A stretch of DNA of 33,053 nucleotides from Verrucomicrobiota bacterium. GTDB lineage: Bacteria > Verrucomicrobiota > Verrucomicrobiia > Chthoniobacterales > UBA10450. The stretch is taken from the NCBI GenBank assembly GCA_040003405.1, contig JBDUCP010000001.1:1-33053 (forward strand), written 5' to 3'. Positions within the stretch are counted from its first letter, which is position 1. Every line of letters starts with the position of its first letter. The translations under genes were made by a program, and so were the position numbers. Of this stretch, positions 3,068 through 26,115 are shown in pieces. The notes beneath the pieces were generated by a model. That model made no database searches. It saw nothing but the letters and a program-made list of their open reading frames with translations, and was not told the DNA's origin.

Positions 3068-3817
3068 TTGAGAGGCGCCATCATGGTCAGCGATTTTGCG
3101 ATCGTCGCGGAGCGCGAAGACTTCATCGTCGTCGACAAGCCGCCCTTCCTTCTGGTGCATCCCACGAAACCGAGTGGCGCGCGCACCTTGTGGGGCGAAC
3201 TGAAACACCTGCTCGCCTTCGAAATCGCGAACGGCGGGCAAGTTTCCATCGTCAACCGGCTCGACCGGGAAACGAGCGGCCTGGTGCTGGTGGCGAAGAA
3301 TGCCGGCGCCGCGCGGCGCTTTGGATTGATGATGCAGTCACAGCGCATCGTGAAAGAATATCTGGCGATTGTTTCGGGCTCGCCGGAATGGGATACCAAG
3401 TCGGTGGATGCACCACTCGTTAGGCAAGGGATTCACGAACCGTCGCGCATCTGGCTGAAGCAGGCGATTCATCTCGCGGGCGCGCCCGCCAGCACCGATT
3501 TCTTTGTCGAACGCCGCTTCGCGCAGGGTTCCAATGGAGACCACTTTAGTATCGTGCGCGCAGTTCCACGCACCGGTCGCACGCATCAGATTCGAGTCCA
3601 TCTCGCCTCGTTAGGCCATCCCATTGTCGGCGATAAGATATACGGACCCGATGAGAAACTTTACCTTCAATTTATCGAGACGGGCTGGACACCGGCGCTG
3701 GCCCAGCAACTTCTTATACCGCGCCACGCGCTTCACTCCGCGTTGCTCCAACTAGACGACGGCTCACAATGGACGAGTCCGCTGCCACCTGACCTGGCAA
3801 ACTTTGTAGCAACCTGA
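3068..3817 (+). CDS. RluA-family 23S rRNA/tRNA pseudouridine synthase
   Basis: 249-aa ORF with VVDKPP, the catalytic-Asp motif NRLDRETSGLVLVAKN and GRTHQIRVHLA. The start could instead be the Met at 3083. Confidence 0.85.
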   Translation: MRGAIMVSDFAIVAEREDFIVVDKPPFLLVHPTKPSGARTLWGELKHLLAFEIANGGQVSIVNRLDRETSGLVLVAKNAGAARRFGLMMQSQRIVKEYLAIVSGSPEWDTKSVDAPLVRQGIHEPSRIWLKQAIHLAGAPASTDFFVERRFAQGSNGDHFSIVRAVPRTGRTHQIRVHLASLGHPIVGDKIYGPDEKLYLQFIETGWTPALAQQLLIPRHALHSALLQLDDGSQWTSPLPPDLANFVAT

Positions 3818-3820
3818 ATC

Positions 3821-4492
3821 TTACTCTCCTGTCGCTACCTTAATGTCCACGAGCTTGATTGTCCTGCCCTCGAAGTTGTGTTCCGTCGCCAGCTTTAGAC
3901 CGCCGAATGATTCATATTTCTCCCACGTCGTCTGCATTCCCTTGCCGGTTGCCGGAATGTAATCCCAGGCGCGCAATAGCTTCGTCTGCCCGTCGATGTA
4001 GAGAAGGTATTGGTCGGACGGCGTGAGACCTACTTTTTCAAAGCTGATTCGCAGGGTTTCACAATCGACGCCGCCGATAGCTTTGGTCTCGCCCGCTTCC
4101 AGCTGCACGCCGCGATCCAGGATCTTCAACGGCGCGAGCAGCCAGTAGGAGTCATTGACCCATCGCGCGTAGGCGTCCTTCTCCTCGCCTTCAGTCGGGG
4201 CGGTCGCGAGGTCCACGGTAACGTGGTGCTCCTTTCCCTCCTTGTCTTTCCACTTCACCTCGTCCGTGTCAGCCGGCACGTTCCAGAGATGTTGCGCGCT
4301 GAAAACGGTTTTTTCTTCCTTATCCACGACAAACGTGAAAGCGACCTCCTTCACTCGCGCCCAATTTTCACCGCCGCTGGCCTTCCACACTTCCGTGGCC
4401 AGTCGCTGCGCTCTTCCAGCAGAATCGTCGGCGGAGAAAACGGTGGTCGCGATGCAAGTAAAAATGAAAATGCCGGCGAGATAAGATTTCAT
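3821..4492 (-). CDS. secreted hypothetical protein
   Basis: The ORF runs 3821..4525. The internal Met (reverse complement of 4490-4492) gives MKSYLAGIFIFTCIATTVFSADD, a clean signal peptide. I recognise no family. Confidence 0.5.
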   Translation of the reverse strand: MKSYLAGIFIFTCIATTVFSADDSAGRAQRLATEVWKASGGENWARVKEVAFTFVVDKEEKTVFSAQHLWNVPADTDEVKWKDKEGKEHHVTVDLATAPTEGEEKDAYARWVNDSYWLLAPLKILDRGVQLEAGETKAIGGVDCETLRISFEKVGLTPSDQYLLYIDGQTKLLRAWDYIPATGKGMQTTWEKYESFGGLKLATEHNFEGRTIKLVDIKVATGE

Positions 4493-4558
4493 GCGGCACC
4501 CTCGCAGCGACTTCGAGCATTGCAATTCACTCGTCCCCCAATATCGTAGCGCGCCTTC

Positions 4559-5164
4559 ATGAGAATTTTATCTCGCGCCGCCGCGCTCCTGTTTTTCGCT
4601 TTGTCCGCATCACTTGCCCGCGCCGGTAGTGATCGCATCACGACCCACTTCACTCCCGAGGCTCCCAGCTTCGAAATTTCGACCGAGACCGCTTACCTTC
4701 TCGGTTTTATCGGCAACCCAAATAGCTACGAGATCGGCTCACAATTTGTCACCGCGCGCTGGCGTTTCGGTCCGGTTTACACCGATGGCTGGCTGCGTGG
4801 CTACAATCAGTTCTATGTGCTGGCCATGGCCGAACCGATCTTTCGCGGACCGGAAAATTTTTACTACGGCATTTCGGTTGGCCTGCGTTACAATTTCCTC
4901 CACGAAAATAGCCGCTTCATCCCATTCGTTTCCGGTGGCGTTGGGCTGGGTTGGATCGATAGCCACTCACAGATCTTCGGCGCACAGGGGCAGGATTTTA
5001 CTTTCAATATTCTCACCGCCGTCGGCGTGTCTTATAAGATGAGCGAGCACTGGAAGGCAACGGCAAGCATCCTTTACCAGCACCTTTCTAACGCCGCGCA
5101 AACCGACCCTAACCCTAGCCTGAATCTGATCGGCCCCCAGCTAGGTCTCACCTATTCGTTCTAG
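4559..5164 (+). CDS. PagL-like acyloxyacyl hydrolase / lipid A 3-O-deacylase family outer-membrane beta-barrel
   Basis: Has a signal peptide (MRILSRAAALLFFALSASLARA), alternating beta-strand pattern, the C-terminal H-x-S-N motif (YQHLSNA) followed by NPSLN, and a terminal aromatic residue (GLTYSF) typical of outer-membrane barrels. Confidence 0.6.
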   Translation: MRILSRAAALLFFALSASLARAGSDRITTHFTPEAPSFEISTETAYLLGFIGNPNSYEIGSQFVTARWRFGPVYTDGWLRGYNQFYVLAMAEPIFRGPENFYYGISVGLRYNFLHENSRFIPFVSGGVGLGWIDSHSQIFGAQGQDFTFNILTAVGVSYKMSEHWKATASILYQHLSNAAQTDPNPSLNLIGPQLGLTYSF

Positions 5165-5173
5165 CTAAAGCGC

Positions 5174-5788
5174 ATGAACGCGCCTAACGAGAATGTCCTG
5201 GTTGTTCGGCGCAGTCTCTTCGATGAGCTTGGCAGCTTCCACGGGTTGCATTTTGAGCCGGAGAAATATATGCCATCACTCCTTTCGCGCGGAAACAATT
5301 TCTTTCTGCCCCGCGCACAAGCCGAGAACGATCCCTCTTATAAACAGATCGTGCCTTATGCCCTGATCGCGCATGGCGATAAAGTGCTCAGTTATGTCCG
5401 CGGAAAGAAAGCGGGCGAGCAGCGCCTTGTCGCCAAAGGTTCCATCGGTATCGGCGGTCATATGAATGACACCGATGAATCCCTTTTCGCGTGGGATGAA
5501 AATGCTTATCGCGCAGGAGTGGAGCGCGAAGTAGCAGAAGAAATAAATATCGAGACCACCTTTAGCGATCGGGTCGTCGCCTTACTGAACGATGACACGA
5601 CAGAAGTAGGTCGCGTCCACCTTGGGATCGTGCATCTCTTTCGTCTGGCTGAGCCACGCGTGCAAAAGCGCGAAGCGATGATTACCAACCTGGCTTTCCT
5701 GACCAGGGAAGAGTTAATCGCGCGCCGCGATAGCTTGGAGACCTGGTCCCAGCTCTGCGTCGATTCATTCGATCGGCTACTGAGTTGA
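5174..5788 (+). CDS. NUDIX-related phosphoesterase (MutT-family, COG4112-like)
   Basis: 204 aa with VLVVRRSLFDE..., KQIVPYALI, RLVAKGSIGIGGHM and a degenerate Nudix box (REVAEEINIE). Confidence 0.55.
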   Translation: MNAPNENVLVVRRSLFDELGSFHGLHFEPEKYMPSLLSRGNNFFLPRAQAENDPSYKQIVPYALIAHGDKVLSYVRGKKAGEQRLVAKGSIGIGGHMNDTDESLFAWDENAYRAGVEREVAEEINIETTFSDRVVALLNDDTTEVGRVHLGIVHLFRLAEPRVQKREAMITNLAFLTREELIARRDSLETWSQLCVDSFDRLLS

Positions 5789-6777: not shown

Positions 6778-7905
6778 TTAAGGTCTTTGCTCAATCGGCA
6801 CAACTTTTTTACCCGCCGGTTCGCCCACATATTCGCTGAGCGGCCGGTAGAGTCGGTTATCTTCCAATTGCTCGAGCACCTGGGCGCACCACCCCGAACA
6901 GCGCGCAATGGCAAAGATCGGCGTGAACAGGTCCGTTGGAATACCTAACGAGTAGTAAACCGTGGCGGAATAGAAATCGACATTAGCATTCAGGTTCTTC
7001 TGCTCCTTCATCAACTGTGCGATGCGCTCGGACATCCGGATCCATTTCGGTTCTCCCAGTTTCTCACTTAGCTTCACCGCCATGGCGCGAAGATGGGGCG
7101 CGCGCGGGTCGAGTGTCTTATAAACGCGATGGCCTATGCCCATGATCTTCTTCTTGTTCGCTAATTGCTTCTCAATATAGGCATCGACGTTCTCCTCGCT
7201 CCCGATTTCCTCGAGCATGTTGATGACACCTTCATTCGCTCCGCCATGAAGCGGACCTTTAAGAGCGCCGATGGCGGCAGTGATAGCAGAATAGAAATCG
7301 GTCAGCGTGGCAATCGTCACGCGCGCGCTGAAGGTTGAGGCATTCATGCCGTGATCGGCATGGAGGATGAACGCGACATCGAGCGTGTCGCTCGCCTCTT
7401 TTGACTGAGGTTCGCCGTACATCAGATAAAGGAAATGTTCGGCTTCAGTGAGGTCATCGCGCACCGGCGGTAGCGACTTGCCATTCCTCGCGCGATGAAA
7501 ATAAGCCGCGATCACTCCAATCTTCGCCGTAATCGAGATGGCCCGGTGCCGGTTTATCTCCGGCGTGGCTTCCTTCCCCATGTCAGGATCATAAAGCCCC
7601 AGCATCGAGATCGCGGTCCTCATCACATCCATCGGCTCCGCGTCCTTCGGAACCGATTTTAGGAATTCGATCACAGGTTCCGGCAGCTTGCGCTGGCTGC
7701 GCAACTCGCTCACAAATGCTTCCAGCTCGCTCCGGTTCGGCAGTTTCCGGTGAAAGAGCAGATACACGACTTCCTTGTAGCTGACTTTGCCCACCAGCTC
7801 GTTAATGTCGTAGCCGCAGTAAACAAGCTGGCCTTTGTCGCCAATGACATCGCTTAGCCGTGTGGAATTCGCGACGACCCCTTCAAGTCCGGGCGAAAAT
7901 GTCAT
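6778..7905 (-). CDS. gltA: citrate synthase (short ~375-aa type)
   Basis: Contains [44 protein letters not shown] and DFYS, the canonical citrate synthase catalytic His/His/Asp regions. Its ATG overlaps the sucD stop (ATGA at 7902-7905). Confidence 0.9.
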
Positions 7906-8783
7906 GATTTCCCCTTCATTTGTGTAATCAACGTATCTGCCATCGTCGCTGGTGTTTCGGCTACGGCGATGCCAGCGGCCTTAAGCGCGTCGATTTTTCC
8001 GACAGCGGTTCCCTTTCCCCCGGAGACAATCGCGCCTGCGTGCCCCATCCGGCGCCCTGGCGGCGCGGTGATGCCAGCGATAAATGCGGCAACCGGCTTC
8101 TGGCAGTTTCCTTTGATCCACTCGGCCGCTTCCTCCTCCGCTGAGCCGCCGATTTCGCCGATCAAAATGATCGCGTCCGTTTGCGGGTCGTCGTTGAAAA
8201 GTTTCACCGCATCGAGGTGGGACATGCCGTTAATGGGATCGCCGCCGATGCCGATGCAAGTCGATTGGCCATAGCCGCGCGAAGTCAGTTGCCAGACCGC
8301 TTCGTAGGTGAGTGTGCCGGAGCGCGAGATCACGCCCACGTTACCCGGCTTATGAATGTAGCCCGGCATGATCCCGATCTTGCACTCACCAGGCGTGATG
8401 ATCCCCGGACAATTCGGCCCGATGAGTCGCGACTTTTTTCCCGCCATCTGGGCTTTCACTCGCATCATATCCATCACCGGAATTCCTTCCGTAATGCAAA
8501 CGACAAGCTCCACGTCGGCAGCAACGGCTTCCAAAATCGCATCCGCGGCGCCCGCCGCGGGCACGAAGATCATTGAGACATTGCAGTTCGTTTTCTGGCG
8601 CGCTTCCCAAACCGTGTCGAACACGGGCACCTTCTCATGGAACATCTGTCCACCTTTGCCCGGCGTAACCCCGGCCACGACATTGGTTCCGTACTCCATG
8701 CATTCCCGCGCATGAAATCCTCCGGCGCTGCCGGTGATCCCCTGCACCACCAGCCGTGTGTTTTTATCGACGAGAACAGCCAT
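7902..8783 (-). CDS. sucD: succinyl-CoA synthetase alpha subunit
   Basis: 293 aa with [23 protein letters not shown] and the phosphohistidine loop [14 protein letters not shown]. Confidence 0.95.
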
Positions 8784-8786
8784 TCG

Positions 8787-9143
8787 TTAGGTCGCTTTGC
8801 GTTTGTGCACTAAAAGTTTGTTCCCGTCCGGATCGCGAAATTGCGCCATCCAACAAACCGGCGTCTCCGTCTGGTCGAGATCGAAGGTGACGCCGCGTTC
8901 TTTGAGCTTCTTAATCGCCGCCTCGATGTCTTCTACTTCAAACGCTACGGTTGTGCCATCGCGCGACGGCTGCCAGGCTGGATGACAACCGACACCAATG
9001 GTCGTGGCGCCGAGTTCGTACTCGACCCACGCTCCTTCCATCGCCGTCGTGCTCGGCTTCAGCTCCAGCGTTTCCTGATAAAATTTCCGCGCCCGTTCCT
9101 TATCGGAAACGGCGATGGCGATAAATGCGACTTCCTTGATCAT
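8787..9143 (-). CDS. VOC/glyoxalase-bleomycin-resistance family protein
   Basis: 118 aa with IAIAVSDKERARKFYQETLEL and FRDPDGNKLLV, a typical single-domain VOC fold. It is inserted between sucC and sucD. Confidence 0.7.
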   Translation of the reverse strand: MIKEVAFIAIAVSDKERARKFYQETLELKPSTTAMEGAWVEYELGATTIGVGCHPAWQPSRDGTTVAFEVEDIEAAIKKLKERGVTFDLDQTETPVCWMAQFRDPDGNKLLVHKRKAT

Positions 9144-9166: not shown

Positions 9167-10378
9167 TTACTTGGAACTTGATTCCTGAGGTTTGGAGCTG
9201 GCCGCCGCTGCCACAGCCTTCTGCGCCGCGTCCGCCAGGTCATCGGCCGTGATCACCGCGACGTCGCTCTCCTTCAGCAACTGTTTGCCTTTTGCCACAT
9301 TTGTTCCTTCCAGCCTAACGACTAAGGGAACGGAGAGCCGCACCGTTTTTGCCGCGTTAATAATTCCCTGCGCGATCACGTCGCATTTCATGATGCCGCC
9401 AAAAATGTTGACCAGGATCGCTTTCACGTGCTCATCCGAAACAAGGAGCTTAAATGCATCCGTCACCTGCTCTTCCGTCGCGCCGCCACCGACATCGAGG
9501 AAATTCGCCGGACTGCCGCCGTAAAACTTAATGATGTCCATCGTCGCCATGGCGAGCCCCGCGCCGTTGACCAGGCAGGCGATATTGCCTTCGAGGCCGA
9601 TGTAGTTGAGCCCGTACTTCGACGCCTCCACTTCGCGCGGATCTTCCTCCGCAATGTCGCGCAACGCCGCCAGCTCTGGATGCCGGTAAAGAGCGTTGTC
9701 ATCGAAATTGAACTTTGCATCGAGCGCGAGGACATCGCCCTTCGGCGTTACCACCAGCGGATTCACTTCGACCATCGAGCAATCGCTCGCGATGAAGGTG
9801 CGATACAAACCGTCGAACAATTTTGCCGCGGCTCTTATTTGCGATGATTCAAACCCGAGCTGCTTCGCCAGCTTGCGCGTCTGGTGCGCCTGCAAGCCCG
9901 CCAAGGGATCGATCCTCTCGCGCAAAATTTTCTCTGGCGATTTCGCCGCGACCGTTTCAATTTCCACGCCGCCTTCCGTGCTCGCGACAATGATGGGCGC
10001 GGCCGTCGCGCGATCGAGGAGGACGGCAAAATAAATCTCCCGCGCGATCTCCGCCGCTTCCGCGACGAGCACTTTATTGACCACGCGACCTTGCGGTCCC
10101 GTCTGGTGCGTGACCAAGGTTTGACCAAACATTTTACCCGCAACATCACGCGCTTCTCCGGCAGATTTCACCAATTGCACCCCGCCTTTGAATCCATTCG
10201 CGAAAGTCCCTTTCCCTCTCCCGCCGGCGTGGATTTGCGCCTTCACCACGAGATCGACCTCGCCGATTTCACGCGCGATCGCTTCGGCCTCATCCGGCGT
10301 CGCAGCCACTTTCCCGCGAGTCGTGGCGACGCCGAATTTCTCCAGCAATTCCTTCGCCTGATATTCGTGAATGTTCAT
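9167..10378 (-). CDS. sucC: succinyl-CoA synthetase beta subunit (ATP-grasp)
   Basis: 403 aa starting [17 protein letters not shown], with [25 protein letters not shown] and VVRLEGTN. Confidence 0.95.
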
Positions 10379-11041: not shown

Positions 11042-13000
11042 ATGCAAGGCGCGGCGGATCTAATTTCCATTTTCAACGGTGCAGTCGAATCCGGCGCGCT
11101 CCGTGAGTCGGCCCGCGCCAATATCACCGCTTTGCTCGATGGTTCGGATGCGCCGCTCTACGCGGCCTCCGTGCGCGAGCTGGCCGATGCCGGCGCGTGG
11201 GAGGAATTGAACGATCGTTTTTACAAGACGCTCGCTTTCGGCACCGGCGGTTTGCGCGGCCGCACCATCGGCCAGGTGGTGACGAAAGCAGAGCACGGAA
11301 ATTCGCGGCCTAACGACCCACCCGAGCATCCCTGCGTTGGCACGAACGCGATGAATTTCTATAACATCAACCGCGCCACGCGCGGATTGGTCGCGTACTT
11401 GAAACTATGGAACGCGAAAGAAAAACCCAAGCTCGTGATCGCACACGACACCCGATTTTTTTCGAAAGAATTTGCCGTTCGCGCCGCAAACATTGCCGCG
11501 GAAAATGGCTGCGACGCATTCGTGTTCGATGGTCCACGTTCCACGCCTGAGCTTTCCTTCGCGGTCCGCTATCTTCGCGCGAGCGCGGGCATCGTCATCA
11601 CGGCAAGTCACAATCCGCCGCATGACAACGGCTACAAAGTTTACTTCGACGACGGCGCGCAAGTGATCGAACCGCACGCGAGCGGTATCATCGCGAAGGT
11701 AAACGCTATCACGAGCGAAAGCTTCACGCCCATCTCGCAGGATCAAAAAGGCGAAGTGAAAACCCTCGGCGCCGCGATCGATGAAGCTTACATGGAGCGA
11801 CTGGAAACGCTGCTGCTCGATCGCAAGATTATCGGAGCGGCCAACTCGTTAGGCATTGTCTTCACACCGTTACACGGCACCGGCGGCGTGATCATCAAAC
11901 CGATGCTGAAACGTCTTGGCTTCAATTTTCAAGTTGTCTCGCAGCAGGACCAATTCGATGGCGCTTTTCCCACCGTCCAATCACCGAATCCGGAAAATGC
12001 AGAAGCGTTGCGGCTCGGGGTCGAACTGGCGGAAAAGGAGGGAGCTGATCTCGTGGTTGCGACCGATCCCGATTGCGATCGCGTCGGTGTCGCGGTTCGC
12101 AATAGCGTCGGGAAAATGCAGTTGCTCACGGGCAATCAGATGGGCTCGCTGCTCGCCTATTACCGCGCGAAGAAACTTTTCGAACTCGGCATACTTAACC
12201 AGGAGAACGCCTCGCGGGGAGTGATCATCAAGACTTTCGTCACTACCGACCTCCAGAAAGCAATCGCGCAGCATTACGGTTTGCGCTGCGTCGAGACGTT
12301 GACGGGCTTCAAATACATCGGCGCGAAGCTGGGGAAATATGAGAACGCGTTGCCAGCGAATGTGCGCGAAAATTATCGCGATTTGTCGGAAGCGGAGACA
12401 CGCCGGCTGCGGCTGGCACAATCTTCCTTCTACGTTTTCGGCGGGGAAGAAAGTTACGGCTACAGTGGCGCTGATTTTGTGCGCGATAAGGACGGCAACG
12501 GCGCCGCTCTCATGTTTTGCGAAGTGGCCGCTTATGCCAAGTCGCTTGGCCTAACGATTGACGCGCTGCTCGATGAAATTTTTTCGGAGCTCGGCTACTT
12601 CGAGGAAAAAAACCGCTCGCTTACGTTTGCAGGCGCGGAGGGCGCCGAGACGATAAAGCGGTTGCTCGCGTCGTATGTAAGCGCTCCACCGCGCGAAATG
12701 AACGGAGCGAAAGTTATCCGGGTGCAAAACTTCGGAACCGAAATTTTTCGCGATGTGGAGGGCGACGAAATTCCGAAAGAGAAAATGTTGATTTTCGAGC
12801 TGGAGGATCGGACGCGGATCGCGGTGCGCGGTTCCGGCACCGAACCAAAAATCAAATATTACCTGTTTGCGGAACGGCGTCCGGCGCGCGAAAAATTTAC
12901 CGCGGCCGAATTAGCCGCGCACAAGCAGGAAGTCAGCGCGCGACTCGACCAGGTTTGGGATTCGATCCAGCAAGATGCCGCCGCCCGCGCCGAAACATAA
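11042..13000 (+). CDS. phosphoglucomutase/phosphomannomutase family protein (PgcA-like, alpha-D-phosphohexomutase)
   Basis: Has the active-site loop TASHNPPHDNGYKVY, the metal-binding loop ATDPDCDRVG, and GEESYG and RGSGTEPKIK near the C-terminus. The ORF opens at 11000; I prefer the Met at 11042 (MQGAADLISIF...). Confidence 0.85.
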   Translation: MQGAADLISIFNGAVESGALRESARANITALLDGSDAPLYAASVRELADAGAWEELNDRFYKTLAFGTGGLRGRTIGQVVTKAEHGNSRPNDPPEHPCVGTNAMNFYNINRATRGLVAYLKLWNAKEKPKLVIAHDTRFFSKEFAVRAANIAAENGCDAFVFDGPRSTPELSFAVRYLRASAGIVITASHNPPHDNGYKVYFDDGAQVIEPHASGIIAKVNAITSESFTPISQDQKGEVKTLGAAIDEAYMERLETLLLDRKIIGAANSLGIVFTPLHGTGGVIIKPMLKRLGFNFQVVSQQDQFDGAFPTVQSPNPENAEALRLGVELAEKEGADLVVATDPDCDRVGVAVRNSVGKMQLLTGNQMGSLLAYYRAKKLFELGILNQENASRGVIIKTFVTTDLQKAIAQHYGLRCVETLTGFKYIGAKLGKYENALPANVRENYRDLSEAETRRLRLAQSSFYVFGGEESYGYSGADFVRDKDGNGAALMFCEVAAYAKSLGLTIDALLDEIFSELGYFEEKNRSLTFAGAEGAETIKRLLASYVSAPPREMNGAKVIRVQNFGTEIFRDVEGDEIPKEKMLIFELEDRTRIAVRGSGTEPKIKYYLFAERRPAREKFTAAELAAHKQEVSARLDQVWDSIQQDAAARAET

Positions 13001-13352: not shown

Positions 13353-13357
13353 GAGCG

Positions 13358-15031
13358 GTGGCTGGCTGGAGTAAAGCGCTGCGGGTTTGGCCGTGGCTTG
13401 CCGCGATCACGACCGGCTTCTTGTGTGCCGGCTGTTTCCCGCCATTCGAGCAAGGCTGGCTCTGCTGGATCGCGCTCATTCCGCTGCTCGGGGCGATCTG
13501 GTTTTCCGGGGCAGACTCAAGACGCCGCTGGCTGCGCGATCTCTTCCTCGGTTATCTCGCTGGCCTCGCCTTTTTCTGGACCGTGTTTTTCTGGCTGCGC
13601 ACCGTCACGGTGCCCGGGCTGATCCTGGTAGGATTTTACATGGCGATCTACTTCGCCGCCTGGAGCTGGTTTTGCGGATGGCTGCGGCCATCGTTGCGCG
13701 CGGCCCCGGCGCCGGCGAGTCGCTGGGCCACGCCCCGGCCTAACGAGTCCCCGCTCGGCCGCTCGCCCTGGCTGCGCTCGACTAATAACCTGCGCCTGGC
13801 CTTCCTCCTCGCCAGCGCCTGGGTCACACAGGAATGGTTGCGCAGCATCGTTTTCTCTGGGTGGGGTTGGAACACTCTTGGCCATTCCCTGCATGCGCAA
13901 TTAGGCGTCATCCAAATCGCCGAGTACACTGGCGTCGCCGGTCTCTCGTTTCTGGTGGCGTGGACGAATGTCATTCTGCTCAGCACCGCGCGCCGTTTTC
14001 TGCTAGAGCTGGAGGTGCGTCCGCTGCGGCCGCATTTCGATTTTACGCTCACCATGGCTGGCATCGTCGGTGTCATGGGCTTCGGCGTGCACGCCCTACA
14101 GACTCAGCGTCCCGGCCAGAAGGTGAACATCGCGCTGGTGCAATCGAACATCCCACGCGAACACAAATTCGATCCCGCCTTCGCGCACACGGTTTTCGAG
14201 CAATTCGAACGGCTCAGTGCTCCGGCCCTGCGCGCGGCGATCCCGCCCGATCTTATCGTCTGGCCGGAAAGTTCGATGCCGGGTCCCGTGCTGCAGGACG
14301 AGCAAAGTTATCGCTTCGTCATGGATTTCTCGGCGTCAGCTAAAATCGATCTGCTTCTCGGCACCATCGACCAGGATGAAACGAAGGCCTACAACGCCGC
14401 CCTGCTCGTCTCGCAGGCCGGCCAGCGCGTGCAGCTTTATCGCAAGGTCCATCTGGTGCCGTTCGGCGAGTACGTCCCGGGCCGGCATTTTATTCCGTTG
14501 CTTGCCCGCATCGTTGGCGATCAGGTGCCGGACGATTTTGCGTTCGGCGCGGAGCACACCGTTTTTGGCCTAACGAACGGCGAAGTGCGGGCCGCGCCGC
14601 TCATTTGTTTTGAAGATACGATCGGCGAATTGACCCGGCAGTTTATTCTCGGCGGAGCGAACCTGCTCGTTAATGTGACGAACGACGGCTGGTTTCTCCG
14701 CACCGCCGCCGCCCGCCAACACCTGGCCAATGCCGTCTTTCGTTGTGTCGAAACGCGCTGCCCACTCGTGCGGGCGGCCAACACCGGCGTCACCTGTTTC
14801 GTCAATGAGTACGGCCGCGTCACGCAACAGTTGCTCGACGAAAACGGCAGCCAGTTTACCGAGGGCGTGCTGACCGATGAAGTGTTGGTGCCGATCAAGC
14901 AAGAGTTGACCTTCTACGTCCGTCACGGCGAACTTTTCGCTGCGGGCTGTATCGGTGTTACACTGGCTGCGTTGGCGGTCGTTGCCTCGCACCGGCTCGT
15001 TAGGCGAAAATCGCCTGTTGCTTCCAATTAA
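13358..15031 (+). CDS. lnt: apolipoprotein N-acyltransferase
   Basis: 557 aa with multiple N-terminal TM helices and a C-terminal CN-hydrolase domain carrying the Glu/Lys/Cys triad contexts (LIVWPESS, YRKVHLVPFGEYVP, APLICFEDT). Confidence 0.85.
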   Translation: MAGWSKALRVWPWLAAITTGFLCAGCFPPFEQGWLCWIALIPLLGAIWFSGADSRRRWLRDLFLGYLAGLAFFWTVFFWLRTVTVPGLILVGFYMAIYFAAWSWFCGWLRPSLRAAPAPASRWATPRPNESPLGRSPWLRSTNNLRLAFLLASAWVTQEWLRSIVFSGWGWNTLGHSLHAQLGVIQIAEYTGVAGLSFLVAWTNVILLSTARRFLLELEVRPLRPHFDFTLTMAGIVGVMGFGVHALQTQRPGQKVNIALVQSNIPREHKFDPAFAHTVFEQFERLSAPALRAAIPPDLIVWPESSMPGPVLQDEQSYRFVMDFSASAKIDLLLGTIDQDETKAYNAALLVSQAGQRVQLYRKVHLVPFGEYVPGRHFIPLLARIVGDQVPDDFAFGAEHTVFGLTNGEVRAAPLICFEDTIGELTRQFILGGANLLVNVTNDGWFLRTAAARQHLANAVFRCVETRCPLVRAANTGVTCFVNEYGRVTQQLLDENGSQFTEGVLTDEVLVPIKQELTFYVRHGELFAAGCIGVTLAALAVVASHRLVRRKSPVASN

Positions 15032-16680: not shown

Positions 16681-18879
16681 ATGAAAAGTTTTTTCGCCCT
16701 CATCCAGATCGATCTCAAGCTGGCGCTGCGCAATCGCGCGGTGATTTTCTTTAACTACTTCTTCCCGCTCATTTTCTTTTTTATCTTCGCGCAACTCTTC
16801 GACGCGAAGCAGGGCGCGGTCATCAATCAGGTGGTGACGATGGTGCTGGCGCTCGGCATTCTCGGCAATGGCCTCTATGGCGCGGGCATGCGCGCGGTGA
16901 TGGATCGCGAGGCAGATGTCCTGCGCCGATACAAGGTCACACCGATCACGCCAGTGCCGCTACTGGTGGCGTCGATCATCACCGGCATGATCCTATACTT
17001 GCCGGCGGTGATCCTGACGCTGGTGCTGGCGAACCGCTTTTACGGAATGCTGGTACCGGCCAATCTGTTGTCGTTTCTGATTTTTGTCAGCATCGGCGCG
17101 ATCGCCTTTCGCGCGATCGGACTCATCGTGGCCGCAGTGGTGAATTCGTCGCAGGAAAGCAACATGCTCATTCAGCCGCTCTACATGGGAATGTTATTCC
17201 TCAGCGGGATCACGATTCCGATCACGGTTTTCCCGAGCTGGCTTCAAGTGGTGACACAATTTATTCCGGCGACCTATCTGATGACGGGCATGGCCGGCAT
17301 TCTCCAGCGCGGCGAAACGCTCTGGCATAATTGGCCGTCGGCCCTTGCCCTGATGGTGACGGCTGTGATCGGCACTTTCATCGCGACGAAGCTTTTTCGC
17401 TGGGAAAAAGGAGAGAAGCTCCGGGGCTCGGCCAAACTCTGGGTGCTGGTCGCACTACTGCCGTTTGTGTTGCTCGGGACGTATCAGGCATGGAGCCGCG
17501 AGGACCTGGTGAAGGCGAAGATTCTGGCGCGTGATGTGAAGCGCGGACGTTCGTGGCTAATTCAGAATGCGCGCATTTTTGTGGGCGATGGCAAGGTGAT
17601 CGAATCGGGCAGCGTGCTCGTTAGGCAGGGAAAAATCGCCGAGATTTATGAGGGACCGGCGCCCGAAGCCAGGTCGCTCAACGCCGAGCCGATCGAAGCC
17701 GCGGGCAAAACCGTGCTGCCGGGATTGATCGATGTGCACGTGCATCTCGGCGCGCCCGGCGGTTTCTATGACGACGCAAACAAGTACGGCGATCCGAAAA
17801 ATGCGGAACGGGAACTGGAAGCCTATTTGTATTGCGGCGTCACGGCGGTGCGCAGCGCGGGCGATGCGCTCGATGGCATGGTAAAGCTGCGCCAAAAATT
17901 TGGCACCGGCGAAAAGCTCGGAACTGAATTATTTTTTTGCGGCCCGCTCTTCACCGCGGAAGGCGGACACGGCACCGAGTATTTCAAGAATGTGCCGGAG
18001 GCATTTCGCTCCAGATTGCTCGCGGGATTTGTGCGTCTGCCGAAGAGCGCGGAGGAAGGGCGCACACAGGTGGATGAATTGGCGCACGCCGGAGTCAATG
18101 CCATAAAAGGCATTCTGGATGCGGGCGTGCCGGGGCATTCCTTCAATCGCATGGACGTGGAAATTTTGCGCGCGGTCGCCGATGAAGCTCATGCGCGGCA
18201 ATTGCCGGTGGCTGTTCACACCGCGGACAATCGCGACGTGGCGGATGCGATCAGCATCGGCGCGAATTCGATCGAACATGGTTCCTTCAGCGAGGAAATT
18301 CCCGACGAAGCATTCGCGCAGATGAAAGCGAAAGGCATCGCCTACGATCCGACGATGAGTGTGGTCGAAGGTTTCACAAACTTCGCCAGGAGCGACACGA
18401 CATTGCTGAAGCGTTCGCTCGTGCAGCAAGTCGCGCCGAAGGATTTGCTGGCCGGGACAGAAAACGCCGCGCGCAGCGATCAATTTAAGGCCCTGCGCGA
18501 GGGCATCAGTCATTACCCGATGTCGCTTGAAATCGGCGGCAAGAATTTAATGAAGGCCTGGCGCGCGGGTGTGATGCTCGTGACCGGCTCCGATGCTGGA
18601 AATTTTCTGGTGATGCACGGGCCGACGGTGCAGCACGAAATTGAACTTTGGGTTGCGGCCGGAATCCCAATCGACATCGCGCTCCAAGCCGCCACCTCCA
18701 ATGGCGCGAAATTATTGCGCGCCGATTCGCGCACCGGCACGATCGAAAAAGGGAAAGAAGCAACCTTGTTTGTCGTGGATGGCAATCCGCTTCAGGACGT
18801 ACACGCGCTCTCTTCCATTTCGATTGTGCTCATGAAAGGCGAACGCGTCATACGCCCCGATCTGTTCGAGCAAAAATAG
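16681..18879 (+). CDS. fusion protein: ABC-2 type transporter permease (N-terminal ~270 aa) + metal-dependent amidohydrolase (COG1228-like, C-terminal ~450 aa)
   Basis: The N-terminal half has 6 hydrophobic helices typical of ABC-2 permeases plus a 7th helix (AKLWVLVALLPFVLLGTYQAW). The C-terminal half has the amidohydrolase motifs LPGLIDVHVHLG (HxH), VAVHTAD, SIEHGSF and TGSDAGN. I take the start at the Met at 16681 (MKSFFALIQIDL...); the ORF opens at 16636. Confidence 0.75.
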   Translation: MKSFFALIQIDLKLALRNRAVIFFNYFFPLIFFFIFAQLFDAKQGAVINQVVTMVLALGILGNGLYGAGMRAVMDREADVLRRYKVTPITPVPLLVASIITGMILYLPAVILTLVLANRFYGMLVPANLLSFLIFVSIGAIAFRAIGLIVAAVVNSSQESNMLIQPLYMGMLFLSGITIPITVFPSWLQVVTQFIPATYLMTGMAGILQRGETLWHNWPSALALMVTAVIGTFIATKLFRWEKGEKLRGSAKLWVLVALLPFVLLGTYQAWSREDLVKAKILARDVKRGRSWLIQNARIFVGDGKVIESGSVLVRQGKIAEIYEGPAPEARSLNAEPIEAAGKTVLPGLIDVHVHLGAPGGFYDDANKYGDPKNAERELEAYLYCGVTAVRSAGDALDGMVKLRQKFGTGEKLGTELFFCGPLFTAEGGHGTEYFKNVPEAFRSRLLAGFVRLPKSAEEGRTQVDELAHAGVNAIKGILDAGVPGHSFNRMDVEILRAVADEAHARQLPVAVHTADNRDVADAISIGANSIEHGSFSEEIPDEAFAQMKAKGIAYDPTMSVVEGFTNFARSDTTLLKRSLVQQVAPKDLLAGTENAARSDQFKALREGISHYPMSLEIGGKNLMKAWRAGVMLVTGSDAGNFLVMHGPTVQHEIELWVAAGIPIDIALQAATSNGAKLLRADSRTGTIEKGKEATLFVVDGNPLQDVHALSSISIVLMKGERVIRPDLFEQK

Positions 18880-18881
18880 CA

Positions 18882-20393: not shown

Positions 20394-20411
20394 AGTCGTT
20401 AGGCACGTCGC

Positions 20412-20856: not shown

Positions 20857-22668
20857 TCACTTCATCTCCTCGATCACTTGCTTGAGATAGTCCGGCATCT
20901 CGGGAAGGGGATCCAAACGGATCTGCATCGAGCCGTCCTCGGCCTTGGAAATCATCGTGTTCACTTTGGCGAAATGATCGTCCTTCTCCGGATAGTCGTC
21001 GCGGAATTGCGCGCCGCGGCTTTCCTTCCGTTCGAGCGCGGCGCGCGTGATCGCCTCGGACACGGTGAGCAGCGTTCTCAAATCCAGCGCGGTGTGCCAG
21101 CCGGGATTGAATTCGCGATGACCGACCACACCGGCGCGGTTCGCCCGTTCCCAAAACCCTTTCAACTTCTCCAACGCCGTCCGCATTTCCGATTCGGTTC
21201 GCACAATGCCGACGAGATCCTGCATCGCTTCCTGGAGATCGCGCTGGACCGAATAGGGATTCTCGCCGTTCGATCTCTCAAACGGCGCGACCGCTTCCTT
21301 CTCGACTCGGCCGATCTGTCCCTGATCGATCTGGCCTAACGAGTTCTCTTGCGCGAATTTCGCGGCGTATTCGCCGGCGCGTTTACCAAACACGACGATG
21401 TCCGAAAGCGAATTTCCCCCGAGGCGATTCGCGCCGTTGATCCCGGCCGCACATTCGCCGGCGGCGAACAAACCGGGGATGCGCGACATCTGGGTGTCGG
21501 GATGAACGTGAATGCCGCCCATCGCGTAATGCGTGGTCGGACCGACTTCCATCGGTTGCTCGGTGATGTCGATGTCGGCCAGTTGCTTGAATTGATGATA
21601 CATGCTCGGCAATTTCCTCTTGATGTGCTCGGCCGAATTCGACATTTTTTCTTTAATCCAGGCGATGTCGAGATAGACGCCGCCGTGCGGACTTCCCCTG
21701 CCCTCTTTGATCTCGCGCACAATGCAGCGCGCGACATGATCACGCGTCAATAGTTCCGGGGGGCGACGCGCGTTCTTGTCTCCCTGACAATAGCGCCAGC
21801 CTTCCTCCGGGCTATCGGCTGTTTGCTCTCGATAATTTTCCGGAATCTGCTCGAACATGAATCTCTTTCCGTCCTTGTTCGTGAGGATTCCGCCCTCACC
21901 GCGCACGCCTTCGGTCACCAAAATTCCGACAACACTCGGCGGCCAGATCATGCCGGTGGGATGAAACTGGACGAACTCCATGTCGATCAATTCCGCGCCC
22001 GCTTCGTAGGCGAGGGAAAGGCCGTCGCCGGTCGATTCCCAACTGTTGCTGGTGATCTTGTAAGCGCGCCCCAGCCCGCCGGTCGCGAGCACGATCGCTT
22101 TGGCGCGAAAGATCTTGAAACGGCCGCGTTCCCGCTCGTAGCCGAACGCGCCCACGACACGATCGCCTTCTTTCAGTAAACCGAGGACCGTGTGTTCCAT
22201 GTAAACTTCGATCCCTTGATGAATGCCGTGATCCTGCAAGGTGCGAATCATTTCCAGACCCGTGCGATCGCCGACATGCGCCAGACGCGGATACCGGTGT
22301 CCGCCAAAATTTCTTTGCAGAATCCGGCCGTCCTTGGTGCGATCGAATACCGCGCCCCAAGCTTCCAGTTCGCGCACGCGATCAGGGGCTTCCTTCGCGT
22401 GCAGTTCCGCCATGCGCCACTGATTTACATATTGGCCCCCGCGCATCGTGTCGGCGAAATGGACTTTCCAATTGTCACGATCATCGACGTTCCCCAGAGC
22501 GGCCGCAATGCCACCTTCGGCCATGACAGTGTGCGCTTTTCCGAGAAGCGATTTGCAAATGAGCCCGACCGAAACGCCAGCGGTCGACGCCTCGATCGCC
22601 GCACGCAAGCCCGCGCCACCCGCGCCGATGACAAGAACGTCGTGCTGAAAAGTTTGATATTCGGCCAT
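20857..22668 (-). CDS. sdhA: succinate dehydrogenase/fumarate reductase flavoprotein subunit
   Basis: 603 aa with the FAD dinucleotide fold VLVIGAGGAGLRAA, the covalent-FAD His context KAHTVMAEGG, plus RTGLEMIRTL and ESRGAQFRDDYPE. Confidence 0.9.
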   Translation of the reverse strand: MAEYQTFQHDVLVIGAGGAGLRAAIEASTAGVSVGLICKSLLGKAHTVMAEGGIAAALGNVDDRDNWKVHFADTMRGGQYVNQWRMAELHAKEAPDRVRELEAWGAVFDRTKDGRILQRNFGGHRYPRLAHVGDRTGLEMIRTLQDHGIHQGIEVYMEHTVLGLLKEGDRVVGAFGYERERGRFKIFRAKAIVLATGGLGRAYKITSNSWESTGDGLSLAYEAGAELIDMEFVQFHPTGMIWPPSVVGILVTEGVRGEGGILTNKDGKRFMFEQIPENYREQTADSPEEGWRYCQGDKNARRPPELLTRDHVARCIVREIKEGRGSPHGGVYLDIAWIKEKMSNSAEHIKRKLPSMYHQFKQLADIDITEQPMEVGPTTHYAMGGIHVHPDTQMSRIPGLFAAGECAAGINGANRLGGNSLSDIVVFGKRAGEYAAKFAQENSLGQIDQGQIGRVEKEAVAPFERSNGENPYSVQRDLQEAMQDLVGIVRTESEMRTALEKLKGFWERANRAGVVGHREFNPGWHTALDLRTLLTVSEAITRAALERKESRGAQFRDDYPEKDDHFAKVNTMISKAEDGSMQIRLDPLPEMPDYLKQVIEEMK

Positions 22669-22678: not shown

Positions 22679-23485
22679 TTAGAGGAGCCTCAGGTCATGC
22701 CAAATACCCATGGAGCAAAGGCGCACGTAAAGATCGCTGAACCCGACCCAGAACAGACTGAGCCACGCAAAGAGCATGTGCCGACGATTGAAACAGCTCA
22801 CGCAACGATAGGCTTGATAGCAGGTGGGTGATTTCGAAAGCTGATCGCGAAAGCCGCCAATCAAATGGCGCAAGGCATGACAGCCGAACGTGAACGCGCC
22901 TAACAAGTAAACGTTCAAGGCGAGCACGATCGTGCCCACGCCGATACCGAACGAAGTTTTTCCCGTGGCCGCATCTGTGAACCAGAGCGCTTTCCAAACG
23001 TCGGTCGCCAGCACGATGACGAACAGGATCGCGAGATAGAGAAAGTAGCGATGCACGTTTTGCATGATGAGCGGAAACGAACGTTCGCCGAGGTAGGTCT
23101 TTCGCGGTTCCCCCACGGTGCAGGCGGGCGGGTCGGCCCAGAACGCTTTGTAATAAGCGCCGCGATAATAATAACAGGTGAGTCGAAATCCGCCCGGCGC
23201 CCAAAGGATCAGCAGCGCCGGCGAAAACAAAAGCCAGCCCGGCCACCAGGCGGGTTTTGGTCCGAACAAACTATGCGGCGACGCGCCGAAAATCTCCGGC
23301 GAATAAAACGGCGAGAGATACGCGCCGAAGTAATAGTGACTTCCCTGGAACGCGGCCCAGGTGGAGTAAACGATGAAAGTCGAAAGCCCGAGAAAAACCA
23401 GGAGCGGCTGCACCCACCACGCGTCCGGGCGCATGGTTTGGCCGAACCCACGCGTCGGCATGGTGGTGGTTTGTGCTTGGGCCAT
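22679..23485 (-). CDS. succinate dehydrogenase membrane-anchor subunit, actinobacterial Sdh1 (Rv0249c)-like
   Basis: 268-aa polytopic membrane protein immediately upstream of sdhA, with an 11-nt gap. Size and position match the membrane anchor of the Rv0249c-Rv0248c-Rv0247c type operon. It has a C-terminal Cys/His cluster (GCHALRH ... CYQAYRCVSCFNRRH). Confidence 0.55.
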   Translation of the reverse strand: MAQAQTTTMPTRGFGQTMRPDAWWVQPLLVFLGLSTFIVYSTWAAFQGSHYYFGAYLSPFYSPEIFGASPHSLFGPKPAWWPGWLLFSPALLILWAPGGFRLTCYYYRGAYYKAFWADPPACTVGEPRKTYLGERSFPLIMQNVHRYFLYLAILFVIVLATDVWKALWFTDAATGKTSFGIGVGTIVLALNVYLLGAFTFGCHALRHLIGGFRDQLSKSPTCYQAYRCVSCFNRRHMLFAWLSLFWVGFSDLYVRLCSMGIWHDLRLL

Positions 23486-24039: not shown

Positions 24040-24651
24040 ATGGCCACCAAAGATCCGAGAATCGACGCTTACATCGCCAAGGCGCCAGCTTTCGCCAAAC
24101 CGATCCTGAAGCATTTGCGCAAGGTCGTGCACGCCGGTTGTCCGAACGTAGAGGAGACGATCAAATGGTCGATGCCTCACTTCGACCACAAAGGCATCCT
24201 CGCTGGAATGGCGGCGTTCAAACAACACTGCGCGTTTGGTTTTTGGAAGGGATCGCTCGTGATCGATGACGGCCGGGCCGCGGAAAAAACGGGCATGGGT
24301 AGCTTCGGTTGCATCAAGTCGATCGCCGATTTGCCTAACGAGAAGACGCTCGCCGGTTATGTAAAGAAAGCCGCGGCGTTAAATGAAGCCGGGATCAAAG
24401 GGCCCGGTCGCACCCAGCCCAAGAAGCGAGAGCCATTGGCGGTCCCGCCCGATTTCGCCGCCGCGTTGAAGAAAAATGCGAAGGCCCGGAAAACCTTCCA
24501 AGCTTTCGCCCCGAGCAAGCAGCGGGATTACCTGGAATGGGTCACCGAAGCGAAGCGAGAGGAGACGCGCGGCGAACGATTGGCGACTTCGATCGAATGG
24601 CTCGCGGAAGGCAAGGCGCGCCATTGGAAATACGCTCCCGCGAAGAAATAA
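24040..24651 (+). CDS. DUF1801 (YdhG-like) + YdeI/OmpD-associated domain protein
   Basis: 203 aa. N-terminus: IDAYIAKAPAFAKPILKHLRKVV...ETIKWSMPHF. C-terminus: DFAAALKKNAKARKTFQAFAPSKQRDYLEWVTEAKREETRGERL. Confidence 0.7.
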   Translation: MATKDPRIDAYIAKAPAFAKPILKHLRKVVHAGCPNVEETIKWSMPHFDHKGILAGMAAFKQHCAFGFWKGSLVIDDGRAAEKTGMGSFGCIKSIADLPNEKTLAGYVKKAAALNEAGIKGPGRTQPKKREPLAVPPDFAAALKKNAKARKTFQAFAPSKQRDYLEWVTEAKREETRGERLATSIEWLAEGKARHWKYAPAKK

Positions 24652-24697
24652 AAGACGAACGAATCCAATTTCACTCAGGCGCGCGATTCCCTCGGTT

Positions 24698-24910
24698 ATG
24701 GCCGATCGCGCAAAGCCGGAAAAATATTGGAACATGGTCGCGGCGGAGCTGACCGCTGAGGGATGGCGTTGCGATTTCGCCCGGGTCGATACGGGAACGG
24801 CTACGGTAATCGTCCTGGAAGGGCACCGAGACGGAATCCATCACATCGTCGTCGCGGACGAATTGGTCCCGGCTTTACTGGAATATGCGAACACGGTGAG
24901 ACCTGCTTAA
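24698..24910 (+). CDS. small hypothetical protein
   Basis: 70-aa ORF from the internal Met of the 24476..24910 ORF (MADRAKPEKYWNMVAAELTAEGWRCDF...). Composition looks protein-like, but I have no family assignment. Confidence 0.3.
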   Translation: MADRAKPEKYWNMVAAELTAEGWRCDFARVDTGTATVIVLEGHRDGIHHIVVADELVPALLEYANTVRPA

Positions 24911-25101
24911 GTCGCAGGAATGCCGGCGCGTTAAGTTCAGTCGACGGGATTCATTCACCTGCGCGCCGCCTTACTTCTCTTATCTCCTCCTGCAAGGCAT
25001 CCTCCAATCCCGCTGGAAACCGGGAAGCATAATGTTCGGCGCAACATGGTTACCGCGAAAAGAAGAATGCCTGAAACAAACAGGGCGTCCGGGCGGCGAA
25101 G

Positions 25102-25182
25102 TGCTCACGAGAGGAGTCGAACCTCCACGGGTTTCCCCATACGGTCCTGAGCCGTACGCGTCTGCCATTCCGCCACGTGAGC
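25102..25182 (-). tRNA. tRNA-Leu (anticodon CAG), type II with long variable arm
   Basis: Folded by hand on the minus strand: acceptor GCTCACG/CGTGAGC, D-arm GCGG-AATGGCAG-ACGC, anticodon stem TACGG/CCGTA with loop CT-CAG-GA, a 13-nt variable arm, T-arm GGAGG-TTCGACT-CCTCT and discriminator A. CCA is not encoded. Confidence 0.85.
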
Positions 25183-25236
25183 TGATCGGCGGTTGCTAAG
25201 GTGCGCGCCCGGCGTGCTGGCGCAAGCGCAATCCAA

Positions 25237-26115
25237 CTAGACGCGGCGCTTCTTGCGCGCGCGCTCTTCGAGCTGGTTCGCCTGCCGGGCTTTGCCTAAC
25301 GAGCGCAGGAGATCGGCGTAGTTCGAGGCGACAATTTCATAATCTTCCGGCGGCTTATCCGTCGCTTCTTCCCAGGTCTTGATCGAGGCGCGGTAAAGCT
25401 CCGAGGCCCGTGCGTAATCGCCATTGGAATGATAAACCACGGCCAGATTGCACTTCGACTGCGCGATGTCGGGATGGGTGGGCGGATGCGCCTTCTCGCG
25501 AATGGCCAGCGCGCGCAGATGCGTCCTTTCCGCCTCGGCGAAACGGCGCTCGTTCGTATAAAAGACAGCGAGGTTGTTCAGCACGGAAGCGACATCGGGG
25601 TGGTCCGGCCCGAGCTGCTTTTCGTAAATCTCAAGAGCGTGGAGGTAATACGGTTCCGCCGCTTTCTGCCGCCCGGTCTTGCGATAAATCAACGCGACGT
25701 TGTTCAACATCGTCCCGAGATCGGAATACGGAATGTCCTCCAGTTTGGAGCCGGCCTTGAAAGCAGTCTCGTAGTAGCCGATGGCCGCATCGGTTTCGCC
25801 GAGATTATCGCAGAGAAAACCGAGCCGCCGGGCCGAACGGAAGAGCGCGCGCTCATCCACGGGCTCGGCTTTTTCGATCAGGGCGTGCGCCTTGATCAGG
25901 TAAGGCTTGGCCGCGAGCCGGTCGCCGGCCTGGTCGTGGAGCTGCCCGAGTTTTTCCAGGCTTAACGCGTAACCGCTTTCGCCCGGTTTGAAAGCGCGCT
26001 CGGCCAGCTCGAGTGCAGTCTCCCCGATCCGGATCGCCTCAGGGAGGAGATTGCTGGCGCGCAACATGTCCAGCTTGTCGTTGAGGATGCCCCACAACTT
26101 TTGCTGGCCTTTCAT
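25237..26115 (-). CDS. tetratricopeptide-repeat protein (TPR_12 / kinesin-light-chain-like repeats)
   Basis: 292 aa with repeated units of the form LNNLAxxYxxxGRYxEAEPLYxRALxI (for example VLNNLAVFYTNERRFAEAERTHLRALAIREK). Confidence 0.8.
   Translation of the reverse strand: MKGQQKLWGILNDKLDMLRASNLLPEAIRIGETALELAERAFKPGESGYALSLEKLGQLHDQAGDRLAAKPYLIKAHALIEKAEPVDERALFRSARRLGFLCDNLGETDAAIGYYETAFKAGSKLEDIPYSDLGTMLNNVALIYRKTGRQKAAEPYYLHALEIYEKQLGPDHPDVASVLNNLAVFYTNERRFAEAERTHLRALAIREKAHPPTHPDIAQSKCNLAVVYHSNGDYARASELYRASIKTWEEATDKPPEDYEIVASNYADLLRSLGKARQANQLEERARKKRRV

Follow-up and report, generated by a model that had tools for sequence, protein, structure and literature searches.

A 33,053-base stretch of DNA from a soil bacterium of the phylum Verrucomicrobiota, order Chthoniobacterales (placed by a scan with one genome per species; here called the window), was found to carry 15 exact copies of the non-palindromic 9-mer GCCTAACGA (complement TCGTTAGGC), nine on the plus strand and six on the minus strand. 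This is an enrichment of about 60-fold over chance, and of 60- to 100-fold across estimates. The force that writes the word acts on double-stranded DNA regardless of replication, transcription and reading frame. It overrides codon bias and amino acid conservation, keeps old sites while adding others, and favors different words in sister lineages. Our preferred reading, offered tentatively, is that GCCTAACGA could be a signal for DNA uptake or transformation that has spread through biased uptake and recombination. A preliminary description of the window had reported the 15 copies, with ten of them extended to the 10-mer GCCTAACGAG, as well as one-mismatch variants at 373, 6943, 8783, 10485 and 22898, and all of these were located where it had placed them. 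The density of roughly one copy per 1.5 kb that it gave applies to the section 3416-25303 (one per 1.46 kb) and not to the window as a whole (one per 2.2 kb).

The abundance of the word was compared with several null models, each of which was exceeded more than 10-fold. Dinucleotide-preserving shuffles (n = 100) gave a mean of 0.25 copies and a maximum of 2, and the third-order Markov expectation for the window was 0.1 to 0.5, compared with the 15 copies observed. Synonymous-codon shuffling within genes, which preserved every protein and each gene's codon set, yielded 1.33 copies on average and never more than 4 in 300 shuffles. The word thus exceeds a codon-aware null, a check proposed in the preliminary description, and this null is generous on purpose, as it retains the peptides and rare codons contributed by GCCTAACGA itself. 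GCCTAACGA is the top 9-mer of the window, and the remaining frequent 9-mers are all GC-rich compositional words. Around the 15 copies, the flanks cannot be aligned with one another and show no conservation past position 10, in agreement with the earlier view of a bare word that is not part of a larger repeat. Rfam and tRNA scans of the window returned nothing related to GCCTAACGA, the sole match being a tRNA-Leu(CAG).

These results bear on the trivial explanation that there is no real feature and that chance, composition, codon usage, a repeated peptide, a dispersed repeat or an assembly artefact produced the counts. A peptide motif was rejected because four frames and both strands are used. 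Repetitive extragenic palindromes (REP), miniature inverted-repeat transposable elements (MITE) and other dispersed repeats were rejected because conservation ends at position 10 and the copies lie inside genes, and an assembly artefact was rejected because the word turns up again in assemblies made independently in different projects and from different samples. With every null exceeded by so much, we regard the probability of this explanation as practically negligible.

The enrichment is sharply confined to the exact word, which is about 100-fold over-represented, compared with at most 2-fold for its one-mismatch neighbors. Taken together, the window and the two nearest reference genomes (L001 and L002) contain 36 exact copies and 19 one-mismatch variants (about 12 expected), a ratio of about 2:1. 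The 2- and 3-mismatch classes were not enriched and fell slightly under a Markov expectation that is itself inflated by the word. The commonest single variant in the three genomes is a CpG transition, G8 to A, with 4 copies compared with 0.2 expected. Within the window, no exact copies occur in 1-3416 (thiE, accC and accB) or in 25303-33053 (TPR, lptE, bamD-like, serS, DUF4126 and DUF2851 genes), and in L001 12 copies in 7.6 kb are followed by 2 in 13.6 kb. The spacing of the copies was indistinguishable from random, with regularity and clustering both nonsignificant. The uneven distribution along the window and L001 may reflect protein constraint, the heterogeneity being nonsignificant by the spacing test.

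Both orientations are used in each of the three dense loci, with strand splits of 9:6 (window), 9:5 and 5:2 and no over-dispersion, and the summed chi-square of 3.2 on 4 degrees of freedom indicates balance in every locus. Relative to transcription, 6 window copies are sense and 8 antisense, and the ratio over unique sites is 17:13; a local search for co-orientation, likewise proposed beforehand, therefore revealed none. The balanced strands rule out a word of the type of the FtsK-orienting polar sequences (KOPS) and make a Chi-like word unlikely. As a polar word, be it Chi, KOPS or the architecture-imparting sequences (AIMS), GCCTAACGA was rejected for its lack of strand skew. There is also the variant of an unskewed, Chi-like recombination hotspot read by RecBCD or AddAB. 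Chi words are lineage specific, asymmetric, over-represented and frequent in core genes, as is GCCTAACGA. Known Chi sites, however, measure 5 to 8 nt, are few-fold enriched and are about 75% or more co-oriented with replication, whereas here a 9- to 10-mer is enriched 60- to 100-fold with splits of 9:6, 9:5 and 5:2, and of 154:145 for a second word, AAGATCGACA, described below. An unskewed hotspot of this kind is thus very improbable.

Nearly all copies lie in genes, with 14 of the 15 in the window placed in coding sequence. Because GCCTAACGA contains a TAA and its complement a TAG, it is open in four frames, and all four stop-free frames are used near-equally in the window (PN[E/D] 4, SLG 4, [L/V]VR 4, GLT 2). 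The codons that build the word are rare in the window: TTA and CTA make up 42 and 34 of 923 leucine codons, AGG 26 of 597 arginine codons and CCT 38 of 502 proline codons. Frame independence and the use of uncommon TTA, AGG and CTA codons, both stated earlier on the basis of the letters, are borne out by these counts. The exact copies and one-mismatch variants in the window are given below, together with the state of the orthologous positions in alignments of up to 91 loci per gene.

3417..3425, minus strand: exact copy, within the 10-mer GCCTAACGAG; pseudouridine synthase gene, antisense, read LVRQ. Relatives read LGRQ, LARQ or LCRQ and differ by 3-4 nt, so this is a lineage-specific gain with an amino acid change.
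3608..3616, minus strand: exact copy, 10-mer; pseudouridine synthase gene, antisense, SLG (TCG TTA GGC). The orthologous copy is exact in L161, L163, L085 and L101 and has 4 mismatches in L164.
5182..5190, plus strand: exact copy, 10-mer; near the start of a conserved, function-unassigned gene of 204 amino acids (aa), sense, APNE. The gene has the same called length in relatives, which show 1-3 mismatches at the site.
9313..9321, plus strand: exact copy; sucC, antisense, where the universal peptide VVRL is written GTC GTT AGG CTG. The site is exact in L002, L163 and L085; other taxa have GTC/GTG CGC/CGG at this peptide.
11308..11316, plus strand: exact copy; phosphoglucomutase-family gene, sense, RPND. 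Most of 80 orthologues have REDE or RENE, so amino acids were altered to create the word.
11846..11854, minus strand: exact copy, 10-mer; phosphoglucomutase-family gene, antisense, SLG. Orthologues are almost all SLR (TCG CTG CGN; about 60), and the copy therefore represents an Arg-to-Gly change plus a rare TTA codon.
12549..12557, plus strand: exact copy; phosphoglucomutase-family gene, sense, GLTI. Orthologues are mostly GQTV or GKTI.
13738..13746, plus strand: exact copy, 10-mer; lnt (apolipoprotein N-acyltransferase), sense, RPNE, in a variable, indel-rich region of the protein.
14568..14576, plus strand: exact copy; lnt, sense, GLTN. The orthologous position reads CGCCTAACGAAT in at least 16 sister-lineage loci, which indicates that the site is old and maintained.
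14997..15005, minus strand: exact copy, 10-mer; lnt, antisense, LVRR, exact in L085.
17618..17626, minus strand: exact copy, 10-mer; ABC-2 permease/amidohydrolase open reading frame (ORF), antisense, LVRQ. Relatives have LVRG or LIRG in common codons.
20396..20404, minus strand: exact copy, the sole noncoding one; 2 nt past the TGA that ends the S1/P1 nuclease gene, with a terminator-like hairpin following closely.
21334..21342, plus strand: exact copy, 10-mer; sdhA/frdA-type flavoprotein gene, antisense, SLG.
24333..24341, plus strand: exact copy, 10-mer; DUF1801/YdeI-family gene, sense, LPNE.
25294..25302, plus strand: exact copy, 10-mer; TPR-repeat gene, antisense, SLG.
373..382, plus strand: one-mismatch variant GCCTAACAAG (G8 to A, a CpG transition).
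6943..6952, plus strand: one-mismatch variant ACCTAACGAG; citrate synthase, SLG (TCG TTA GGT), orthologous to exact copies in L001 (13882) and L002 (9831).
8783..8792, minus strand: one-mismatch variant ACCTAACGAA, reading ACC-TAA-CGA-ATG on the minus strand. As described earlier, its TAA is the stop codon of the glyoxalase/VOC gene; the final A opens the ATG of sucD.
10485: one-mismatch variant, presence verified.
22898..22907, plus strand: one-mismatch variant GCCTAACAAG (G8 to A).

The sites at 373, 6943 and 22898 are each one mismatch off the 10-mer GCCTAACGAG.

Alignment of orthologues revealed how sites arise and persist. Invariant peptides are spelled with rare codons in word-bearing genomes, as in the VVRL of SucC and in the SLG of citrate synthase, which reads TCG TTA GGC in these genomes versus TCG CTG/CTC GGC elsewhere. 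At variable protein positions, residues were replaced to create the word (SLR to SLG, REDE/RENE to RPND and GQTV to GLTI in phosphoglucomutase). Six window sites lie 3-6 nt from the sequence of every relative, and the window lineage is therefore gaining sites. L001 and L002 share 76-80% nucleotide identity. In comparisons between them, 5 of 9 and 5 of 7 sites are kept without any change (p = 0.003 and 0.0007), against a background of 13.3% of ordinary aligned 9-mers. For pooled locus pairs (70-86% identity), retention of GCCTAACGA was 28% versus 10% background, and overall the word sites are retained 3 to 5 times as often as ordinary 9-mers. An examination of relatives, as had been suggested, thus showed the word in other genes and orthologous sites retained above background, with turnover.

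A function-free word could in principle be written by a mutational or repair bias, that is, by sequence-specific mismatch correction or gene conversion through a nicking or Vsr-like enzyme together with a methyltransferase. Sequence-specific correction is also the older explanation of the cyanobacterial highly iterated palindrome HIP1, there for a palindrome. Such a bias would account well for the very sharp enrichment (about 100-fold for the exact word versus at most 2-fold for one-mismatch neighbors) and for the CpG transition G8 to A as the commonest variant, and it would be expected to affect the two strands alike and every reading frame to the same degree. Many sites, however, arose from sequences 3-6 nt away and with amino acid replacements, for which a one-step corrector needs graded advantages, and a repair bias does not predict that intergenic DNA should be nearly free of the word. 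Among repair biases, the single comparable case known to us, very-short-patch repair in Escherichia coli, causes less than 2-fold and not 60- to 100-fold enrichment, and to our knowledge a contiguous asymmetric 9- to 10-mer is unlike the specificities of methyltransferases and Vsr enzymes. We therefore consider a repair bias distinctly unlikely.

The distribution of GCCTAACGA among relatives was also analyzed. The best SucC matches to the window belong to two metagenome-assembled genomes (82% identity). GCCTAACGA outnumbers every other 9-mer in both nearest reference genomes: L001 has 14 copies in 21 kb and L002 has 7 in 10 kb, i.e., one per 1.4-1.5 kb. Only about 4 kb of these loci is syntenic with the window, and the L001 copies are found in pheT (5), a CHASE2 sensor gene (3), carA (2), a methyltransferase gene and others. 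This spread over unrelated regions in independent assemblies of different projects argues for a genome-wide property. More distant Verrucomicrobia (SucC identity of 72% or less) harbor 0 or 1 copy. The base that follows the word differs between genomes, being G in 10 of 15 window copies and in 2 of 14 L001 copies, where A is dominant (Fisher p = 0.008). In both the window genome and L001 this preference opposes the genome's own GAA/GAG usage, and the 10th base behaves like a lineage dialect.

A metagenome scan with the phosphoglucomutase of the window yielded 80 soil loci (68-74% identity), and exact-protein look-ups of the nearest AccC homologues added six further loci that are fully syntenic with the window. 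The nearest relatives of the window (citrate synthase identity of 90-95%) carry 0 to 2.3 copies of GCCTAACGA per 10 kb, and one of these near relatives, GCA_003218305.1 (L164), has none in 21 kb. L001 and L002, which are farther by citrate synthase (80-83%), are denser, with 6.6-7 copies per 10 kb. Further relatives are 10- to 30-fold enriched, and 1-2 copies per 10 kb still exceed chance more than 10 times. Several of the copies in low-density relatives are orthologous to window copies; L161, L163, L085 and L101 belong to this word-poor class. Above-chance abundance and orthologous sites in relatives together indicate that the word is old in the group and that its density rose and fell between lineages. 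In the syntenic relative L163, the conserved gene order breaks off after thiE-pfkB, where an island (12960-18903) carries a phage-type integrase gene together with small ORFs and an SLFN/AlbA_2 gene.

A large soil sister branch of lower GC content (about 54%) is dominated by a different bare, non-palindromic 10-mer, AAGATCGACA. We counted 14 copies in 16 kb of L084 (e.g., at 1689, 3848, 4062 ... 13147), and the word is also found in L099, L118, L140 and about 50 more loci among L081-L160. In total, 777 kb contain 237 copies, or 59 sites once orthologous copies are counted as one. Its strands are balanced (154:145), five of six frames are used, and its sites are retained 4 times as often as background (35% versus 8.6%). 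GCCTAACGA is still present in this AAGATCGACA-rich branch, where its 68 copies (27 unique sites) correspond to about 11 times the chance level.

Other frequent words were encountered as well. Within 22 kb, L083 contains the HIP1 palindrome GCGATCGC 8 times (1866, 2060, 6354, 10388, 11213, 14588, 16582 and 21618), and its top 9-mer is the extended form CGCGATCGC, with a raw count of 10 over both strands. In another sub-branch (L142, L151, L156, L146, L143 and L132), GCCCTACAA occurs 2 to 4 times per short locus, with 15 copies in 5 loci; it may belong to a longer unit (GCTTGCCCTACAA/AGGGCAAGCGCTTGCCC). In other Verrucomicrobia loci, the candidates CCGGGGTTG in L014 (1046-1202 and 7628-7820) and GCCGTCACC in L017 (12171-13992) were rejected as bare words, since they form part of longer elements present in duplicate or of repeats within proteins arranged in tandem, and such repeat-derived words call for caution in automated k-mer screens.

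Different words in sister lineages, orientation independence and the retention of sites would fit any double-strand binder with changeable specificity. GCCTAACGA might therefore be bound by a sequence-specific protein that is abundant on the chromosome and unrelated to import, such as a nucleoid-organizing factor or a defense or repair 'self' tag, that is kept by selection in cis; the patchy density among relatives could then track gain or loss of the protein. Against such a protein stand the random rather than regular spacing and the finding that cheap intergenic DNA holds just 1 of 36 copies. Furthermore, we know of no nucleoid or defense protein that has made a 9- to 10-mer so dense within genes, at about one copy per 1.5 kb, at a cost in codons and amino acids. 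A chromosomal binding site is thus unlikely, in our judgment.

Returning to the preferred reading, GCCTAACGA as an uptake signal would spread as follows. The transformation machinery would preferentially bind or import double-stranded DNA carrying the word, and conspecific fragments that bear it would be taken up and recombined more often. Word-bearing alleles would then displace word-free ones by molecular drive, possibly reinforced by selection for uptake of self-DNA, and over time GCCTAACGA would build up in either orientation at all positions where the protein can accommodate it. The literature searched describes such a signature, among non-palindromic words, only for the DNA uptake sequences (DUS) of Neisseriaceae and the uptake signal sequences (USS) of Pasteurellaceae (10.1101/2025.10.24.684340), and the palindromic HIP1 of cyanobacteria has now been linked to transformation (10.64898/2026.06.24.733823). 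On account of this DUS/USS signature and of the link between HIP1 and transformation, biased uptake with homologous recombination was ranked as most likely. By extension, soil Chthoniobacterales may practise sequence-specific uptake via signals of their own, GCCTAACGA and AAGATCGACA, with an independent origin in Verrucomicrobiota in addition to DUS, USS and perhaps HIP1, which we consider possible, with somewhat greater reserve.

Several observations weigh against an uptake signal. In the window, L001 and L002, 35 of 36 copies are intragenic, no inverted pairs of GCCTAACGA were found within 100 nt, and none were found in terminators. Density among relatives is patchy, from 0 to 7 per 10 kb, and 2 of the 4 copies in L163 (13083 and 17664) lie in or beside an integrase-bearing island. 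Some sister-lineage loci hold both GCCTAACGA and AAGATCGACA at 20-fold enrichment or more (e.g., L118, with 4 and 10 copies), so that one receptor is no easy explanation; moreover, DUS dialects are 1-3 nt apart, whereas GCCTAACGA and AAGATCGACA are unrelated. The literature searched contained no report on natural transformation, competence or an uptake-like signal in Verrucomicrobia, Udaeobacter included. Finally, the high-density sample for GCCTAACGA amounts to about 64 kb from three genomes, from which genome-wide status is extrapolated. No competence genes were seen among the genes at the loci around sucC, pgm and accC (those loci only), and a literature search for GCCTAACGA and AAGATCGACA themselves returned only primers and constructs. 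As far as the local data reach, none of the three refuting conditions named in the preliminary description arose. Its uptake-like interpretation is supported in part, by the comparative properties shared with DUS and USS, but the hallmarks it relied on are not unique, since HIP1 shares them, and the association with terminators is missing.

Sequence-specific uptake is firmly established in two proteobacterial families only, both of them largely host-associated (2025 survey, 10.1101/2025.10.24.684340). If the reading is correct, GCCTAACGA would represent a third, unrelated case, in uncultured soil Verrucomicrobia, and recognition of self-DNA would have arisen more than once in evolution. Natural transformation would then be indicated for soil bacteria known here only from metagenomes, and the unrelated words of sister clades would record switches in receptor specificity that partition gene flow in soil. 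The words could then serve as barcodes for binning, host assignment and the tracing of gene flow in metagenomes. Close relatives differ widely in density (0 to 7 copies per 10 kb), which lends itself to phylogenetic profiling aimed at the responsible receptor or enzyme. Even without uptake, a force that overrides codon usage and amino acid conservation across housekeeping genes deserves identification.

The window itself is a housekeeping stretch of a diderm bacterium. Its genes include thiE, accC, accB, a pseudouridine synthase gene, PagL, citrate synthase, sucD, sucC and a phosphoglucomutase-family enzyme, followed by lnt, an ABC transporter, an S1/P1 nuclease, an sdhA-type flavoprotein, LptE, a BamD-like lipoprotein, serS and tRNA-Leu. 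ABC-2 permease and amidohydrolase domains are joined in a single ORF of 747 aa (16636-18879). The S1/P1 nuclease ORF (18648-20393; 581 aa from the first TTG) overlaps this preceding ORF by about 230 nt, and the true nuclease start is therefore probably further downstream. An imperfect inverted repeat of about 145 nt lies at 31862-32004, intergenic between the DUF4126 and DUF2851 genes. Its arms of 30 nt are 87% complementary and 83 nt apart, and it is made of 7- and 14-nt sub-repeats (AAGCTCC/AAGCACC in one arm, the complements in the other).

Comparison with known systems places GCCTAACGA at differing distances from each. Chi and KOPS/AIMS are likewise short, asymmetric, over-represented words of core genes, but they are replication-skewed and modestly enriched, whereas GCCTAACGA shows no skew and 60- to 100-fold enrichment. 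HIP1 (GCGATCGC), whose function has been debated for decades, resembles GCCTAACGA as a hyper-abundant short word that runs through coding regions and is evolutionarily retained. It differs in being a palindrome with known methyltransferases and phylum-wide occurrence, whereas GCCTAACGA is asymmetric and patchy in a few related lineages. The DUS of Neisseriaceae (GCCGTCTGAA and dialects, with the receptor ComP) share with GCCTAACGA the asymmetric 10-mer scale, the extreme over-representation and the use as a lineage barcode, and their dialects can be likened to the 10th base, G in the window and A in L001, and to the different words of sister branches. About half of DUS and USS lie in terminators, and DUS often form inverted pairs (bioRxiv, 10.1101/2025.10.24.684340), unlike GCCTAACGA with 35 of 36 copies in coding sequence and no pairs.

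The USS of Pasteurellaceae (core AAGTGCGGT or ACAAGCGGT) are non-palindromic 9-mers found once per 1-2 kb in both orientations and mostly in genes, as is GCCTAACGA. DUS and USS occur at roughly one per kb, to which the density of GCCTAACGA is close. Like GCCTAACGA, USS use permissive frames and poorly conserved protein segments, their perfect copies outnumber one-mismatch copies about 2:1 (the ratio for Haemophilus influenzae USS is similar to that of GCCTAACGA), their orthologous sites are common to related species, and their consensus varies by lineage. GCCTAACGA differs from USS in its unrelated sequence and phylum and in having neither an AT-rich flanking motif nor an enrichment in terminators or intergenic DNA. 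At the level of the sequence, the word shares with the uptake-sequence class its abundance, strand symmetry and conservation with dialects, while lacking the typical terminator association. With no core in common and a host in Verrucomicrobiota, GCCTAACGA is an analogue, and not a member, of the DUS and USS sequence families.

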